Source: a bacterium (GTDB taxonomy: Bacteria > Zhuqueibacterota > Zhuqueibacteria > Residuimicrobiales > Krinioviventaceae). Taken from it: a stretch of 64,000 nucleotides of DNA. The notes under the pieces are model-generated. The model was given only the letters and a program-made list of their open reading frames with translations. It searched no databases and was not told the origin of the DNA. Shown here piece by piece: positions 27,682 through 37,397 of this stretch. A program made the translations under genes and the position numbers. The stretch is taken from contig CAXXFV010000023.1 in NCBI GenBank assembly GCA_963674595.2, positions 704,001 to 768,000 on the forward strand. Direction: 5' to 3'. Each line of letters opens with the position of its first letter. Position 1 is the stretch's first letter.

Positions 27682-27696
27682 GTTTATATATATAAT

Positions 27697-27813
27697 ACCG
27701 GCGATGACCTACTTTCCCACACCGCCTCCGGTGCAGTATCATCGGCGCTGAAGGTCTTTACTTCTGTGTTCGGGATGGGAACAGGTGTTACCCCTTCGCT
27801 AAAACCGCCGGTA
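27697..27813 (-). rRNA. rrf: 5S rRNA
   Basis: Reverse complement carries CCTGTTCCCATCCCGAACACAGAAGTAAAG and GGGAAAGTAGGTCATCGCCGG; ~117 nt. Confidence 0.95.
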
Positions 27814-27894
27814 AACTTGTAAACTTTTTAAAACTGGAGAATAGGGAAACAACATTATCCACGTTGAGATATTTTTGCAAATGGGTAAATTTCA

Positions 27895-30840
<2,946 letters not shown>

Positions 30841-30846
<6 letters not shown>

Positions 30847-30930
30847 TGAAATTTACGCATTCGCAAAAATTTCATGTCTCTTACTGTGGTTTGTATTATT
30901 TGCCCTATATTCTCCAGTTTGTAAAAGATC
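30841..30930 (-). promoter_or_regulatory. 23S leader: boxA-like element and 5' arm of the processing stem
   Basis: GATCTTTTACAAAC (30930-30917). 30841-30925 is an imperfect inverted repeat of 27826-27900 (e.g. TTGACCTGAAATTTAC / GTAAATTTCAGGTCAA and TCTCCAGTTT / AAACTGGAGA). Confidence 0.75.
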
Positions 30931-30986
30931 TATGCCGCTCTCTATCAGCCGCGGCCCACTGTCCGGTCTTTCCACCGATTTGCGGA

Positions 30987-31015
30987 ATGATACAGACTTT
31001 CTCCCTTTTATTCAA
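30987..31015 (-). promoter_or_regulatory. Sigma70 promoter directly upstream of 23S rRNA
   Basis: Minus strand TTGAAT-N17-TATCAT followed by a GC-rich discriminator (TCCGC). Confidence 0.75.
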
Positions 31016-31395
31016 GTTTTCCAGACAGATTTTTCAGGGTTCTTTTTTTGTACTGCCCGACCCTGTTTGCCAGGGTCTCCCAAACCCGGCTCCTAATTCA
31101 ATTTATATATTTATTATTTAATCCCTTCCATCAATTACGGGAATATGATGCAAAGCATCTTTTCCGAAATCCCTATTCCAGATTCAATCCGAATCTAAAG
31201 ATCATCACAATATTAAATACACCTTCAAACCCTGATATTTTCCAGAAGAAAAAAATAAAAGCTAATTAGTTTCACCCTGTTCCAATAGGTAAACTTTTAA
31301 AATCGGCAAAACAGTCTTTTCACCAGATCAGCCCGCCCTGCTATCCAATCCAAAAGCAAGTTGAAAAAATGGACAATATCCTTCACTATTCGTGA

Positions 31396-32145
31396 ATGCC
31401 CCAAAATAACCAGAAGGTAAATAATAAAAGACACAAGATTCTTGCGGCCTCCGTTCACCTGTTAACAGCATTCGGATCAGTTCTGGGTCTGCTGGGATTT
31501 GCGGCCTGCAGCCGCGGAGAATGGCGGACGGTCTACATCCTAATGATTTTGACTGTATTGATAGATGCCTTTGATGGCTCTCTGGCAAGAAAATTCAGGG
31601 TCCGGGAGGTGCTGCCTCAGATCGACGGAGCCCTGATGGATAACCTGGTGGATTTCGTAAATTACGCCCTTCTGCCTGCATTTGTATTGCTTTTATCAGG
31701 TCTTCTCCCGGTACAATTCAGGCTTCTGGGAGCGTCCATGGTCCTGTTGTCTTCCTGCTTCCAGTTTTCGCAAACCAATGCTAAAACAACCGATCACTTT
31801 TTCCGTGGATTCCCTTCCTACTGGAACCTGCTTGTGATTTATCTCGGATTATTAGGCACTTCCTCATGGACAAATCTTATGGCTGTCACAACCTGTGCTA
31901 TCCTTGCCTTTGTTCCAATCTACTATGTCTACCCATCACGCACGCCAGTACTCAAGAAACTCACGCTCTGGCTTTCTCTTCCCTGGCTCATCCTGCTTAC
32001 CGGGGCTGTTTTAATGTCAGGATCTTCAACAATGGGTGCTTTCTCATATCCTGTCACTCTCATTTCTCTTTTCTATATACTTTACTACCTGTCGTTAAGC
32101 TTTTTTCTATCGTTCCGCAGAACAAAAGCCAGGCACAAATTCTAA
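31396..32145 (+). CDS. pcs: Phosphatidylcholine synthase
   Basis: DGSLARKFRVREVLPQIDGALMDNLVD matches the Pcs signature DG-x2-AR-x8-P-x3-G-x3-D-x3-D; also VHLLTA and DHFFRGFPSYWN. Confidence 0.88.
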   Translation: MPQNNQKVNNKRHKILAASVHLLTAFGSVLGLLGFAACSRGEWRTVYILMILTVLIDAFDGSLARKFRVREVLPQIDGALMDNLVDFVNYALLPAFVLLLSGLLPVQFRLLGASMVLLSSCFQFSQTNAKTTDHFFRGFPSYWNLLVIYLGLLGTSSWTNLMAVTTCAILAFVPIYYVYPSRTPVLKKLTLWLSLPWLILLTGAVLMSGSSTMGAFSYPVTLISLFYILYYLSLSFFLSFRRTKARHKF

Positions 32146-32176
32146 TTTCATCCGAGCAAGGATATCCCCCCAAATT

Positions 32177-33811
32177 ATGTCCATTACTAAAAAGGCTAAG
32201 AGCAAAAAATCCGGCAACCGCCACATTCCTTTATCAGTTTGGGGGCTTGTAGCATTAATACTGCTGATCGGGGTCTGGCTTTATGCAACTGGACACAGAG
32301 TTCACTGGCCCGGCTTTATTTCCATCATGGTTTTCTATCTGCTTATCTTCTACCTGGGTTGTTTTGCTTCCAGAAAATATTCGAGTGGAAATATCGATGA
32401 TTTGATGCTTGCGGGACGGAAACTCCCCCTGGGCTTAGCCGTCTTTACAATGAGCGCCACCTGGGTCGGGGGCGGATACATTAATGGAAGCGCGGAATAT
32501 GCCTATTCCAATGGCCTGGCATGGGTCCAGGCACCCTGGGGTTACTCCTTAAGCCTCATAATAGGAGGTCTTCTCTTTGCGGCTCCAATGCGGCGCAGAG
32601 GTTACAGAACAATGCTTGATCCGCTGCAGCAGCGCTTCGGGAAAAAAGTATCTTCTATCCTCTTCTTACCTGCAGTTACCGGTGAACTCTTCTGGTCAGG
32701 GGCAATCCTAGTAGCTTTAAGCACAACTTTTGCCACGGTGTTAAATCTGGATAACCGTACATCCATCATAATTTCTGCAGTCATAGTAATCGCTTACACC
32801 GTGATCGGCGGACTGTGGGCAGTTGCCCTGACGGACACAGTCCAGCTGGTGCTTATTTTTGCCGGACTCTGGCTGGTTATTCCATCGGCACTGCCACATG
32901 TCGGGGGAATGAAAAAACTCCTGGCTGACTATGGAGCATCAACCGGATCCCTGGGAGGATTGCTGCCTCCATGGGACTGGAGGAGCGATCCAAACTGGGG
33001 CAACTATTTCTGGAACTGGCTGGATTACATGCTCCTTTTAGCACTGGGAGGGATACCCTGGCAGATCTATTTCCAAAGGGTACTGGCAGCAAAATCAGCC
33101 TCAGTAGCGAGAATCCTTTCTATTCTAGCTGCTTTTGTGTGTTTCGCGGCTGCAATCCCAGCTATCTTAATCGGCATGATAGGACACCAGATACCATGGG
33201 GAACCGGAATCTATCCTGCAGCACCGGAAAACGCCGCCAGTATTCTGCCCTATGTCATTCAGTACTGCACAAATCCGGCAGTAGCCGCAATCGGGTTGGG
33301 CGCAGTCGCTGCTGCCGTAATGTCATCAATGGATTCATCTATCCTGTCAGCAGCCTCCATGAGCACCTGGAATGTGTACAGGCCGGCCAGGCACAACACT
33401 CCTTCACCCAAGGAAATGAAGACGGTTCTGCATACCTGCATAGTTGTTATAGGAATAGCAGCCGCACTTATGGCTTTAAAAATTCAGAGTGTTTACGAAT
33501 TATGGATCCTGTGCAGTGACTTTGTTTACTGCATCCTCTTTGCCCAGCTGCTTTGCGCGGTGTATGACAAAAAAGCTAACAAAATTGGCTCTATTGCCGG
33601 CATTGCAGTGTCTTTTATCCTCAGGTTCGGCGGCGGTGAAACTGCCCTGGGTATCCCCAGGTTGATTCCTTACCCCATGATAGCTGAAGACGGAGCGGTC
33701 CTATTCCCCTTTCGTACTCTTTCCATGGTTGCAGGACTGATTACGATTATCGCGGTTTCCCGGCTGACACAAAAACGGTGCCCGCCTTCCAGCCTCTCTT
33801 CCGTTGAATAA
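32177..33811 (+). CDS. Sodium:solute symporter, CHT1/SLC5A7 (high-affinity choline transporter)-like
   Basis: FTMSATWVGGGYINGSAE, GLAWVQAPWGYSLSLIIGG, TMLDP, GELFW, LLLALGGIPWQIYFQRVL, AAVMSSMDSSILS and FPFRTLSM are colinear with human SLC5A7 as I recall it. Confidence 0.85.
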   Translation: MSITKKAKSKKSGNRHIPLSVWGLVALILLIGVWLYATGHRVHWPGFISIMVFYLLIFYLGCFASRKYSSGNIDDLMLAGRKLPLGLAVFTMSATWVGGGYINGSAEYAYSNGLAWVQAPWGYSLSLIIGGLLFAAPMRRRGYRTMLDPLQQRFGKKVSSILFLPAVTGELFWSGAILVALSTTFATVLNLDNRTSIIISAVIVIAYTVIGGLWAVALTDTVQLVLIFAGLWLVIPSALPHVGGMKKLLADYGASTGSLGGLLPPWDWRSDPNWGNYFWNWLDYMLLLALGGIPWQIYFQRVLAAKSASVARILSILAAFVCFAAAIPAILIGMIGHQIPWGTGIYPAAPENAASILPYVIQYCTNPAVAAIGLGAVAAAVMSSMDSSILSAASMSTWNVYRPARHNTPSPKEMKTVLHTCIVVIGIAAALMALKIQSVYELWILCSDFVYCILFAQLLCAVYDKKANKIGSIAGIAVSFILRFGGGETALGIPRLIPYPMIAEDGAVLFPFRTLSMVAGLITIIAVSRLTQKRCPPSSLSSVE

Positions 33812-33843: not shown

Positions 33844-33963
33844 AATCGTCAATCATCAATTAAATTGTGTCGCCCTTCCAGGGCTGGGAAACGTCCCCCG
33901 TAGATGCCGGGGGACCAGAAACTGGCAGTTTCCGACCACGGGTGTCAATCGTCAATCGTCAAT
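33844..33963. repeat. Heptamer arrays flanking a REP-like palindromic segment
   Basis: AATCGTC AATCATC at 33844 and (GTCAATC)x3 at 33944-33963, with GTCGCCCTTCCAGGGCT and CCCCCG...CGGGGG stems between them. Confidence 0.6.
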
Positions 33964-35364
33964 GGATTTGGCTTTTTCCAGGGCCTGGGTTGTCGTGAAA
34001 TATTTAACCTTCATGTTGGATTCTTCCCATTCAGGCAGAGCGCCCTGCTCCAGATAACCGAGGTACCTTTTCATTACCTGAGCAAAATGGGCTTCGTGGC
34101 CTATGCGAAATTCATCCGGAATGGTGATATGCCATCCGTTCGCGGTTTCGCTGCATTCTACGCCGGGATAATTTTTCTGGATACCTTCCACCGCCCCGAC
34201 CAGGGCTGATTCCACTGCTGCTTTTTCAATACCTTCAGCGGGTTCAACAAAAAGTTCAGCCTTGTAAGCCTGGTCAGCACCCTGGCGAATAATAATATTC
34301 GCCTTGGATCCTCTCATGATGGAGTAATGGGTATCAGCGGCGCCTTCGGGAGCCTGGAAATTCCATTTAACAATTGCCTGGCTGTGTATGCCCTTCAGCT
34401 TATAGTCAATCTGCCCGTTGGCATAACAAAGCAATTCACCTCTTTCGTTAAGACTGCCTCGGAGATACTCCGGAAACTCTGCAACACCGGTAACTTTTTC
34501 GAATTGTTCCCGGCTGATCACGGTAGGCCAGCGTTTGGCGCTGACAATCTCAATATCATTATCAGTAATGGCCTGTTCCGGAAAAGCCTCCCACATAATC
34601 AGGTCCAGCAAATGGTTGGTAACATCAACGATTCCTTCACCCTGCTGGGTTGTATCAAAAGCCCAGGCTGGTCTTTGCAGAGGTTTTCCGCTGACATACT
34701 TAAAAAAGTGATGGACACTTTCTTTTACAATGGCGGGCTCTTCGAGGCTGCCCTGAACCAGGGTTCCGGACACCTCAGGAGTATGAGCCAGCTCTTTCTG
34801 CAGGATGGTCGTTATTTCAGACCGCTCCGTCATGATATCGTAGATAAGTACATTGTTCTTTTTGGCTGAATCGAAGGCTGCCAACAGAGTTTCATATCCC
34901 TCGGTGTTAATGCACATGGGTTTGTCAGCCAGTACATTCAGCCCCGCGTCTACACATGCCTTAATGTACTCGGCTTTCTTTTTATTATTGCCCGCCAACA
35001 CCACAAGATTACCTTTTTTATCGGCCAGCATTTTTTCGAAAAAGTCATCCCCGGTATATACTTCCTCTTGCCAGGAAGTAGGATTTTCCTTTTGAGAATT
35101 GAATCCTTCAATTAGCTTAAGGTGAGCATCAAGTTCAAATCCGGCTGGTGCGTATACGTGAACAACAGGACTGATCTGCGGATACATCAATTTCTGAACC
35201 AGGGCCGCATGAAAATGGCCAGGGTCCAGGGTGACTAACCTGATTGAAGCTTCTCCCCCTTCTTTCATTGAACCATCCGGCGACGCCTTCTCAGCAATGT
35301 CACATCCGGTACTTCCAATTAACAGGCAGGCAGCCATCCCCCACATTACCAACATCTTTTTCAT
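33952..35364 (-). CDS. Lipoprotein Gfo/Idh/MocA-like putative oxidoreductase
   Basis: Lipobox-like IGSTGC; LDPGHFHAALVQK, LADKPM, DIMTER, GHEAHF. Start moved to ATG 35364. Confidence 0.75.
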   Translation of the reverse strand: MKKMLVMWGMAACLLIGSTGCDIAEKASPDGSMKEGGEASIRLVTLDPGHFHAALVQKLMYPQISPVVHVYAPAGFELDAHLKLIEGFNSQKENPTSWQEEVYTGDDFFEKMLADKKGNLVVLAGNNKKKAEYIKACVDAGLNVLADKPMCINTEGYETLLAAFDSAKKNNVLIYDIMTERSEITTILQKELAHTPEVSGTLVQGSLEEPAIVKESVHHFFKYVSGKPLQRPAWAFDTTQQGEGIVDVTNHLLDLIMWEAFPEQAITDNDIEIVSAKRWPTVISREQFEKVTGVAEFPEYLRGSLNERGELLCYANGQIDYKLKGIHSQAIVKWNFQAPEGAADTHYSIMRGSKANIIIRQGADQAYKAELFVEPAEGIEKAAVESALVGAVEGIQKNYPGVECSETANGWHITIPDEFRIGHEAHFAQVMKRYLGYLEQGALPEWEESNMKVKYFTTTQALEKAKSIDD

Positions 35365-35614
35365 CACTATTGTCCTTCTGAAAATTTCTATTTCCGGTAT
35401 TAAATTCCACAACCCAGCTTTTTCAATCATGAAATTACATTTAATTTTAAAAAATAAATCCGGATTTAAACGATTAATTCAAAACCAGGGAATTTCCCGC
35501 TTCCCCTATCCCAGGATTGTATTTTACCCGAGGTAAAACTATCAAAAAATATCATGGTATCAACAATAACATTATTCTTTGATACCAGTGTTGTACCAAT
35601 AGCGCTACCTGTTT

Positions 35615-36907
35615 CTACCTATCCGCCAGCAAAGCGGCGATCTGGGCCTGGCGGGCAAGATTCATTGAATCTCCCAGGATGCGGGCAGCCTCCTGCGGAC
35701 TGTGGAAACCAGTGCTGTTTTCTGAGGAGACAAAATCCCAGCGCATTGAAGCCTTTCGCTGCAGCTTCAGGGCTTCAGCCAGATCCTCATCTGAAGCTCC
35801 ATCTGCCCTGGCTCCCACGATAGCGTCAATCGCATCAACGATTGCTTCTTCAGATGACCTCAGCAGACTGGCGGTCTTGTGCTGGATTTCCAGTATCCTT
35901 CCCTTAAGTTCCTCTTCATCCCACTGGTGACATGTCTGGCATGAATGATTAACATTGGTAAGCGGGCTGCGGACCCAGTGGTCAGACACCTTCACGCTTC
36001 CCTCCCTGATATAGGGCATGTGGCAGTCAGCACAGGACACTCCGGAACGGGCATGAATTGAACTGCTCCACATTTCAAACTCCGAATGCTGCATCTTCAG
36101 CATCGGTGCCCCGGTTTCTTTATGGGTCCAGTCAGAAAAATTAATTTCATCGTAATACTCATCAATATTGTCTATGCTTAAACCCTTGGTCCAGGGAAAC
36201 GTTAATAATTTGTCCTCGCCCTTGAAATAGTATTCAACGTGGCACTGCGCGCAGACATACGTCCTCATTTCCTGGCGGGTAGCCTTATTCAGATCAATGC
36301 CTCTCGCCTCCATGGCGTTCTTGAATGCGGGCCTGGTAACACGAAGGTCCATGGTTACGGGATCATGGCAATCCGCGCAGGATGATCCGGTTTTCAGGCT
36401 GGATTTCAGTTCATTATAGGGAGTGTGGTTAAAAGCAGGCCATCCCATTTCTTCAATTAATGCCGGTACTTCGGCAGCGTGACAGTTGGCGCATGCTCCA
36501 GGCTGATCAACTATCTTGGTCCTCTGGGTATTTAACTGATCAATCAAAGCGTAATAATGGCCGCGTTCTTCGTTATGATCCACCGCGAAGGAATAGCCGG
36601 CCCAGATACGCTTCATAGCCGGGACTTTTTCCAGTTTACTGTAAGGGGTAGAGCCGCCGTATTCAGTACTGCCGTAATCAATCTCGGTCTTTACAAAGGA
36701 GTCATACTCCATCGGGAAATTGCGCCCCCACACCTCGGGATTAATTTCACCCTCAGCGATCTCCACCACGTTCAGCGGATACTGGAAGGCCTCCTCCTTG
36801 CGCGCCTGAATGTTAAAAAGAAGAGCCAGAATGGCAATAGTTACAGCTCCGGCACCTGCAAAGGCGGCTACATAAACAAGTCGCATCCATACTGATTTGC
36901 TCTTCAT
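35615..36907 (-). CDS. nrfA: Ammonia-forming cytochrome c nitrite reductase NrfA (heme-1 CxxCH variant)
   Basis: Five heme motifs CANCH, CADCH, CAQCH(VEYYF), CADCH(MPY), CQTCH; KMQH; ERGH; SENSTGFH. Start at ATG 36907. Confidence 0.92.
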   Translation of the reverse strand: MKSKSVWMRLVYVAAFAGAGAVTIAILALLFNIQARKEEAFQYPLNVVEIAEGEINPEVWGRNFPMEYDSFVKTEIDYGSTEYGGSTPYSKLEKVPAMKRIWAGYSFAVDHNEERGHYYALIDQLNTQRTKIVDQPGACANCHAAEVPALIEEMGWPAFNHTPYNELKSSLKTGSSCADCHDPVTMDLRVTRPAFKNAMEARGIDLNKATRQEMRTYVCAQCHVEYYFKGEDKLLTFPWTKGLSIDNIDEYYDEINFSDWTHKETGAPMLKMQHSEFEMWSSSIHARSGVSCADCHMPYIREGSVKVSDHWVRSPLTNVNHSCQTCHQWDEEELKGRILEIQHKTASLLRSSEEAIVDAIDAIVGARADGASDEDLAEALKLQRKASMRWDFVSSENSTGFHSPQEAARILGDSMNLARQAQIAALLADR

Positions 36908-36920
36908 TAACAAATCCTTC

Positions 36921-37397
36921 CTATTTTTTCCTGTTGTGCCCGACATGGCTGTGACAAAACAGGCAGTCGGCATTCTCCCCGCCAGTCCCGGCACCCATGC
37001 GCCCAACCATGTCCTGATGACAGCTGATACATTTGTTTTGAACTATATCTTTATTAAATCCCTTGATCCGCAAAGGTTCCGGGAAATTACCGGTAGTAAA
37101 GGCAGCGCTGTGATTCCATCCGTTAATGGCTTTTACCGTATATTTACCAAAAAAATCGTGAGGAGTATGGCAGTCATTACAGGTAGCTGCAGCATGATGG
37201 CTCGTGCGGGCCCAGGCATCAAAATGCTCTCTCATGATGTGGCAGTTTTTGCAGGCAACAGGGTCATCCTGCAGATAGGAAGTACCCTGCGCGTAGTAAA
37301 AGGTATATCCGGACAAGCCGAATACGGCACCCAAACATAGCGACAGAATCAGGAGTGCCCAATGAATTGATCCTGATCCGTGTTTACTTATGCCCAC
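36921..37397 (-). CDS. nrfH: Tetraheme quinol dehydrogenase NrfH
   Basis: N-terminal TM helix; CKNCHIM, CNDCH, CISCH, CLFCH..VGH; upstream of nrfA. Confidence 0.92.
   Translation of the reverse strand: MGISKHGSGSIHWALLILSLCLGAVFGLSGYTFYYAQGTSYLQDDPVACKNCHIMREHFDAWARTSHHAAATCNDCHTPHDFFGKYTVKAINGWNHSAAFTTGNFPEPLRIKGFNKDIVQNKCISCHQDMVGRMGAGTGGENADCLFCHSHVGHNRKK

Follow-up and report, generated by a model that had tools for sequence, protein, structure and literature searches.

How does a bacterium that encodes phosphatidylcholine synthase (Pcs) come by the free choline that this enzyme would consume? The question is raised by positions 31396 to 33811 of the stretch analysed here (the window, 64,000 nucleotides of contig CAXXFV010000023.1 of assembly GCA_963674595.2, from a bacterium of the Krinioviventaceae in the phylum Zhuqueibacterota), where a pcs gene is directly followed by a gene for a carrier of the SSS family that resembles the neuronal choline transporter CHT1 (SLC5A7). 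An initial annotation, made from the sequence alone, had proposed that the two genes form a Na+-coupled choline-scavenging module for making phosphatidylcholine (PC). The grouping of the transporter with CHT proteins, its intact functional residues and the recurrence of pcs beside its relatives support that proposal, and a two-gene module feeding PC synthesis is, on these sequence comparisons, the very likely function of the pair. Both open reading frames (ORFs) lie exactly where the initial annotation had placed them, co-oriented and 31 bp apart:

31396..32145, forward strand: pcs, predicted phosphatidylcholine synthase (CDP-diacylglycerol:choline O-phosphatidyltransferase), 249 amino acids, ATG start; assigned from the ORF list, PF01066, the NCBIfam ranking, the motif and the fold
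32146..32176, forward strand: intergenic spacer of 31 nucleotides, with AAGGA 14 nucleotides before the transporter ATG and no terminator-like site
32177..33811, forward strand: predicted CHT-type (SLC5A7-like) Na+/choline symporter of the SSS family, 544 amino acids, ATG start; assigned from the ORF list, PF00474, the PDB search and the residues

Identity of the transporter and of Pcs

The SSS domain (PF00474) is recognised in the transporter with 125.6 bits, residues 78-476 aligning with positions 3-403 of the 406 in the model, and the score against TIGR00813 is 154.5 bits, under the NCBIfam cut-off of 184. A HMMER search of all PDB chains, with similarities far above chance level, gives sfCHT, the choline transporter of Salimicrobium flavidum, as the best match (9rws_A, 618.8 bits, E 9.9e-185, residues 13-541 on positions 17-542 of 551) and human CHT1 as the second (8j74 and 9bfi, 419 bits, E 2.7e-124, residues 43-532). 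The remaining solved SSS carriers (vSGLT, SGLT1/2, NIS, SMVT, SiaT and SMCT1) reach at most 69 bits. A grouping with PutP or PanF, which the initial annotation had named as the case that would speak against its proposal, is not seen: the scores are 88.2 bits for PutP (TIGR02121, cut-off 515.5) and 79.7 bits for PanF (TIGR02119, cut-off 328), far below both cut-offs. Among 25 SSS matches in its own genome the transporter is single-copy, the next paralogue scoring 72 bits. By sequence the protein clearly belongs to the CHT1/SLC5A7 type within the SSS family (TC 2.A.21). Bacterial relatives are already named 'high affinity choline transporter' by JGI annotation and in the automatic names of the Atlas; the proteins listed in these searches, at least 120 in one of them, were all bacterial or unnamed.

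For sfCHT, the main text of the recent paper (PMC13220886, Sci Adv 2026; preprint 10.1101/2025.09.30.678764) describes Na+-dependent choline uptake with overshoot in proteoliposomes, its blockage by hemicholinium-3 (HC-3) and its loss in the W99A variant, together with the cryo-EM structures 9RWS and 9RWT. Two statements of the initial annotation have been overtaken by this work, namely that bacterial CHT1-like proteins lack an assigned substrate and that the characterised bacterial choline carriers include none of the SLC5A7 type. According to the same text, it is not yet clear what bacterial CHT1 homologues do physiologically, and whether they depend on Cl- is unknown. Since the two proteins fall in the same subfamily, a layout of 14 helices with two extra helices at the N-terminus is expected for the window transporter as well.

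Functional residues listed in the consulted text of the sfCHT paper and of the human CHT1 paper (PMC11589582) were mapped through the HMMER alignments to PDB chains, and the letters were verified in the window protein. The six aromatic residues that cage choline in CHT1 (W62, Y67, Y91, W141, W254 and W406) are all kept, as W96, Y101, Y123, W173, W295 and W443. The initial annotation had recognised five of these pairs, all except Y67/Y101, through the short motifs ATW, GYS, ELFW, GIPW and ELW, and the four blocks that it had likened to human SLC5A7 are found unchanged in the alignment to 8j74. Five of the cage positions are invariant across 161 homologues, and position 101 is Tyr in 136 and Phe in 25. 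The VGGGY chloride loop of CHT1 corresponds to residues 97-101, the Na2 site (A60, V63, A343, S346 and S347) to A94, V97, A380, S383 and S384, and the Na3 site (D188, D349 and S350) to D220, D386 and S387; E73, which contacts HC-3, is E107. With regard to sfCHT, the cage residues W99, Y126, W176, W298 and W445 and the Na+ ligands A97, T98, V100 and Q226 are kept, the last as Q223, and the pathway residues R84, Q303 and R304 are found as R81, Q300 and R301. Except at position 304, to which we return below, the listed functional positions show no or almost no variation in the alignment of 161 homologues. Human CHT1 (8J74, 9BFI) is thus matched in its six aromatics, VGGGY loop, Na2, Na3 and E73, and differs from the window transporter in that the latter has about 40 extra N-terminal residues and Ile in place of Y407; the role of CHT1 in acetylcholine recycling is not applicable here.

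The assignment of Pcs was approached by domain, family model, motif and fold. The CDP-alcohol phosphatidyltransferase domain (PF01066) is detected with 25.7 bits, just over its cut-off of 22. The five top NCBIfam matches are all Pcs models (NF045884-NF045888), with scores of 200.4 (cut-off 440), 184.9 (400), 158.8 (350), 144.5 (400) and 123 bits (300), and PssA follows at 37 bits. The Pcs models are covered almost from end to end; in one case residues 4-240 align with model positions 3-241 out of 250. This ranking points to a Pcs. The protein carries DG-x2-AR-x12-G-x3-D-x3-D at residues 60-86, and the canonical pattern with an 8-residue spacer is absent; the form of the CDP-alcohol motif with a 12-residue spacer is what we take to be the Pcs signature, which the initial annotation had called exact in this protein. 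The D/G/A/R/G/D/D positions of the motif are invariant in the Pcs alignment, in which the window protein is 27-39% identical to the homologues linked to transporter genes. With the enzymes of Sinorhizobium, Agrobacterium, Legionella, Borrelia and Pseudomonas, which the five models represent, it shares a size of about 250 amino acids, the spacer and the near-full-length model match, but its 123-200 bits against cut-offs of 300-440 place it on a distant branch.

A sequence search of PDB chains with Pcs gave no match at E 0.01. The AlphaFold model, built from a 22-sequence alignment, has eight predicted helices (pLDDT 76, pTM 0.71), and the best match in a fold search was phosphatidylserine synthase (7pow/7b1k), with a TM-score of 0.52 normalised to the query and 0.63 to the target. 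Phosphatidylinositol phosphate (PIP) synthases, AF2299 and PgsA/PgsA1 came next. The predicted structure is that of the expected CDP-alcohol phosphatidyltransferase fold.

The distance from characterised enzymes leads to a different reading, in which the substrate of the pair resembles choline without being choline, for instance a different small quaternary ammonium or sulfonium alcohol, and the Pcs-like enzyme makes a lipid with a different head group. It would agree with Pcs scoring below every curated cut-off and being only distantly similar even to the linked homologues, and with a literature search that yielded no report of PC in the Saprospiraceae, the main carrier family of the linked genes. 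We consider this reading very unlikely, as the six cage residues, the chloride loop and both Na+ sites match human CHT1 and are near-invariant across the family, a member of the family from the Bacillaceae transports choline, genes for choline oxidation neighbour the transporter elsewhere, and the five best family models for the enzyme are all Pcs.

Gene context in related loci and genomes

If the pair serves PC synthesis in the window, is it found together elsewhere? Two sets of loci were taken, one from species-representative genomes (the 80 best of 343 confirmed transporter relatives) and one from metagenome contigs (the 80 best of 145), and pcs was sought in their flanks by tblastn with the window Pcs. 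A pcs homologue was present in the flank of 25/80 genome loci and 35/80 metagenome loci (60/160), which bears out the expectation of the initial annotation that the linkage would be conserved in other genomes. For loci with at least 1500 nucleotides on both sides the counts are 17/49 (genomes) and 22/38 (metagenomes). Of the 60 linked loci, 54 have at most 800 nucleotides between the aligned parts of the two genes, and the other 6 have 1.4-4.2 kb. Four arrangements occur: pcs is upstream and divergent in 48 loci, upstream and co-oriented, as in the window, in 5, downstream and co-oriented in 2, and downstream and convergent in 5. The Pcs motif is present in 58/60 linked homologues, and the two misses are cut by contig ends.

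Transporters of this kind occur in the window's phylum and in genomes labelled Bacteroidota, of which many belong to the Saprospiraceae or Chitinophagales; among the carriers of the linked pair are the cultured strain Flavilitoribacter nigricans (L036) and a member of the named genus Phaeodactylibacter (L052). The order pcs-transporter is kept in the three closest relatives, L090 (88% identity) and L091 and L092 (74%), which share the flanks of the window as far as their contigs allow: the 23S rRNA side in L090, the side of the downstream oxidoreductase gene in L092, and both sides in L091. As a separate observation, seven pcs-linked loci, in Saprospiraceae-, Phaeodactylibacter- and Lewinella-type records, have a conserved protein of about 400 amino acids encoded convergently downstream of the transporter (L024:7521-8747, L029:7548-8774, L042:7528-8763, L063:3368-4666, L068:8709-9917, L070:6508-7716 and L073:2507-3703); its representative in L024 had no Pfam or NCBIfam match.

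A FastTree phylogeny of the window transporter, the 160 homologues and, as outgroup, three SSS paralogues from its own genome (bacterial sequences only, no rows dropped) groups the window transporter with L090, L091 and L092, all of which have pcs upstream on the same strand, as one starred clade. This clade is nested in a larger starred group (21 rows), whose other members include Bacillaceae sequences and further pcs-linked loci. To account for the pcs label, the tree needs 18 changes, of which starred branches force at least 13, compared with a mean of 47 for shuffled labels; linkage to pcs is therefore clustered, yet in many separate clades. The best matches of the window Pcs outside its own clade (L169, L077, L142 and L105) fall in the same 21-row group of the transporter tree. 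Because the nearest relatives of both proteins lie in this one group, the tree fits with pcs and the transporter gene travelling together, and we infer that the pair came to the lineage of the window by horizontal transfer.

In the window's phylum the pair is sporadic. In 40 relatives of the window genome, 18 of the same family and 22 of the same order, neither the transporter nor Pcs was found. Among 167 genomes of the phylum the transporter occurs in 2 (G000 and G142) and Pcs in 3 (G000, G142 and G092), so both holders of the transporter also have Pcs; in G142 the genes are on different contigs. The matches to AsnRS came only from metagenome-assembled genomes labelled 'Acidobacteriota', at 74-95% identity. 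A further sample comprised 201 genomes of the order to which G167, itself one of the linked-pair carriers, belongs; here the transporter was found in 15 and Pcs in 19, and Pcs is present in 14/15 genomes with the transporter versus 5/186 without it. Among five genomes reached through the loci, Pcs was found in two that are pcs-linked and in an unlinked, Calditrichia-labelled one, where the genes are not adjacent; no Pcs was found in the Algoriphagus genome, with its bet context, or in the Halobacillus genome (together G169 and G171). Co-occurrence is stronger than adjacency, since many genomes (G142, G170 and 11 of the order sample) hold both genes apart.

Recent acquisition, which the lack of both genes in the 40 relatives suggests, could also mean that the adjacency is due to joint arrival or chance and that one or both genes are silent or decaying. 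That there is no promoter signal above chance before pcs would fit this explanation. It is nevertheless extremely improbable, for neither reading frame is interrupted or shortened relative to its homologues, the transporter aligning over residues 13-541 with sfCHT and Pcs from residue 1 in L090, the catalytic and binding residues are all kept, and the arrangement with its flanks is preserved in three relatives at 74-88% protein identity.

A far more sweeping reading of the same distribution takes pcs-CHT as a mobile 'phosphatidylcholine cassette' that moves across phyla, with lipid synthesis as the original job of the family; animal CHT1 would then have descended from a bacterial lipid-scavenging symporter and not the reverse. 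Behind it stand the sporadic presence of the pair in the window's phylum, the shared nearest relatives of both genes and the high conservation of the family across phyla. We regard it as unlikely. The initial annotation, too, had suggested that the pairing may bear on how the animal cholinergic transporter arose.

Neighbour clustering of the 160 loci revealed a second context, in which genes for a GMC oxidoreductase and an aldehyde dehydrogenase stand beside the transporter gene. Representatives score 874.5 bits as BetA (cut-off 605) and 768.4 bits as BetB (cut-off 593) with the NCBIfam models, and betA and/or betB (bet genes) were found in 29/160 loci, including those of Algoriphagus, Marinilabilia and Balneolaceae. 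Overall, 58 loci have pcs only, 2 have pcs and bet genes, 27 have bet genes only, 30 with adequate flanks have neither, and 43 with short flanks have neither. In these transporter-betA/betB clusters the same transporter family adjoins enzymes that use choline, but the fate of the choline would be oxidation to glycine betaine and not incorporation into lipid. Both contexts point to choline as the substrate of the transporter family. The two loci in which a pcs homologue and a bet-gene match occur together are L046 (3-3916) and L107; in L046 the order is pcs, transporter and GMC (betA-like) oxidoreductase on one strand, with both fates of choline represented in one cluster.

The second context raises the alternative that the transporter of the window serves osmoprotection or the supply of carbon and nitrogen, with the adjacency to pcs here being without functional meaning. 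The bet-linked loci, with their representatives over the NCBIfam cut-offs, would be in line with it, as would the missing Pcs in G169 and G171, and in the main text of the sfCHT paper osmoadaptation and nutrient supply are proposed for halophiles (PMC13220886). The genome of the window is different in this respect. In this assembly (6.6 Mb, 37 contigs, 97.6% complete) searches found no BetA and no choline kinase, and no CutC above cut-off, the best CutC score being 165 bits versus 1050. There was also no BCCT carrier and no OpuAC/ChoX-type binding protein. Within the families searched, sequence matches leave the transporter as the sole candidate choline importer and Pcs as the sole predicted choline consumer. 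Given this repertoire, the recurrence of pcs linkage in 60/160 loci and four arrangements, and Pcs in nearly all sampled genomes of the order of G167 that have the transporter, a purely osmoprotective or nutritional role has a very low probability for the window.

A proposed module for phosphatidylcholine synthesis

In the proposed module, the transporter would concentrate external choline in the cytoplasm, driven by the sodium gradient. Pcs, a membrane CDP-alcohol phosphatidyltransferase, would join this free choline to CDP-diacylglycerol, giving PC and CMP. The CDP-diacylglycerol donor would be supplied by CdsA, for which a gene was found elsewhere in the genome. Co-transcription of the two genes, choline transport and PC formation by their products are what we infer from the layout and the protein families. 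As to the origin of the choline, nine matches to glycerophosphodiester phosphodiesterase (PF03009) were found in the genome (L175-L182 and C23:368754-369437), and it is only a hint that these enzymes could free choline from glycerophosphocholine.

Several observations weigh against this proposal. The transporter family is not bound to Pcs alone, as shown by the 27/160 loci with bet genes only and the 30/160 with neither despite adequate flanks. In the order sample the two genes are adjacent in only 3/14 genomes that have both, and in 11/14 they are on different contigs or far apart; the counts of that sample come from related genomes, so that Fisher values overstate the association and are not true probabilities. 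With regard to the enzyme, the window Pcs stays under all five curated equivalog cut-offs, which belong to clade-specific models, and by NCBI's rule it is hence the equivalog of no characterised clade. Its structural model is only moderately confident at pLDDT 76 and was compared without any solved Pcs structure. A methylation route to PC through PmtA may exist beside that of Pcs. Promoter- and terminator-like sites around the pair are not above shuffles, and the sequence gives no proof of a single transcript; the sequencing runs listed as containing this DNA were two of DNA type from one study, and none was of RNA type. Lastly, the transporter has Ala304 at the position of S307 in sfCHT (S263 in CHT1). 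This position is Ser in 99 and Ala in 62 of the 161 homologues; in the main text of the sfCHT paper, choline uptake is reduced in the S307A variant and S307 is rated as supportive and poorly conserved (PMC13220886).

Comparison with known systems shows what the proposed module would add. From sfCHT it differs in its host, which is of a different phylum, and in that the window gene adjoins pcs; in two Bacillaceae loci (L059 and L066) no pcs was seen. The main text of the sfCHT paper has no mention of pcs, operon, neighbour, gene cluster or phylogeny (PMC13220886). A functional precedent is the supply of choline to Pcs by the ABC importer ChoXWV, described for Brucella in the consulted text of PMC8371380. 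In the ChoXWV-Pcs systems of Brucella and Sinorhizobium (PMC8371380) a high-affinity importer gives Pcs its free choline, as the transporter would in the window, but import there is powered by ATP through an ABC system that includes a binding protein, whereas the gene beside pcs in the window encodes a predicted Na+ symporter of the SSS type that consists of a single polypeptide. In a 2021 review of SSS carriers in prokaryotes, choline comes up solely in connection with the BCCT family.

We know of no report of a CHT-type gene beside pcs in organisms with a characterised Pcs. The claim of the initial annotation that the pairing was undescribed agrees with our literature search, in which no description of a CHT-pcs pairing was found in open-access papers or bioRxiv, supplements excluded. 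The kind of system is familiar: the transporter class is characterised, each part of the module is known, and the logic of placing an importer beside the consumer of its substrate is ordinary. The novelty is smaller than the initial annotation held, because the transporter class has now been characterised. New as far as we found is that CHT-type transporters are associated with Pcs and, elsewhere among the lineages, with BetA/BetB. This gene context offers, for a large share of the family, the physiological role that was left open by the sfCHT paper. Transporters associated with pcs most likely feed membrane PC synthesis, and those associated with bet genes glycine betaine synthesis. The Pcs pathway would thereby gain a single-gene, sodium-driven candidate supplier of choline, and PC synthesis from scavenged choline would be expected in many uncultured bacteria.

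Surroundings of the gene pair

The pair is isolated between oppositely oriented genes, with a divergent 23S-5S rRNA unit upstream and a convergent oxidoreductase gene downstream:

27696-27812, reverse strand: 5S rRNA gene (Rfam match)
27893-30846, reverse strand: 23S rRNA gene (Rfam match), divergent from pcs
30847..31395, forward strand: non-coding stretch from the 5' end of the 23S rRNA gene to the start of pcs, the presumed promoter and leader of the pair
33893..33915, no strand assigned: G+C-rich hairpin with a stem of 8 bp, located where the transporter and oxidoreductase genes converge, read from the sequence
33952-35430, reverse strand: Gfo/Idh/MocA-type oxidoreductase with the PF16490 C-terminal domain (394 bits), convergent to the transporter gene
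35615-37397, reverse strand: nrfA (cytochrome c552 nitrite reductase, PF02335, 484 bits) and nrfH (TIGR03153, 160.6 bits, cut-off 134.2), from Pfam and NCBIfam

Location on the same strand, the gap of only 31 nucleotides and the lack of a terminator in this gap according to a terminator scan correspond to the layout of an operon. A consensus promoter scan of the stretch 30847..31395 gave 4 sites, not above the mean of 4.6 in shuffles. Within it, 31044-31382 has no blastn alignment in the close relative L090, although both flanks align. Rfam at gathering threshold returned only the 23S and 5S rRNA across the whole window and nothing in 30847..31395, so at this threshold the window is without a riboswitch. 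The hairpin at 33893..33915 is a possible two-way terminator by its sequence; it was missed by the terminator scan because no run of T follows it. The oxidoreductase gene at 33952-35430 was considered as part of the unit and dropped, being convergent and not recurrent among the neighbour clusters, though it is syntenic in L091 and L092.

The junction between the 23S rRNA gene and pcs is found as in the window in L090 and L091. No 16S rRNA or tRNA genes are present in the window beside the 23S-5S unit (27696-30846), and the rRNA genes of the organism are therefore unlinked. The nrfA and nrfH genes indicate nitrite ammonification. The G+C content of the window is 0.36-0.42 in the first 27 kb (1-27000) and 0.43-0.53 later (28000-64000). 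The genes of the low-G+C part include that for FliD, the flagellar cap protein, and several for TPR-glycosyltransferase fusions, one of which also has a sulfotransferase domain. Judged by this gene content, the part may be a flagellin glycosylation island.

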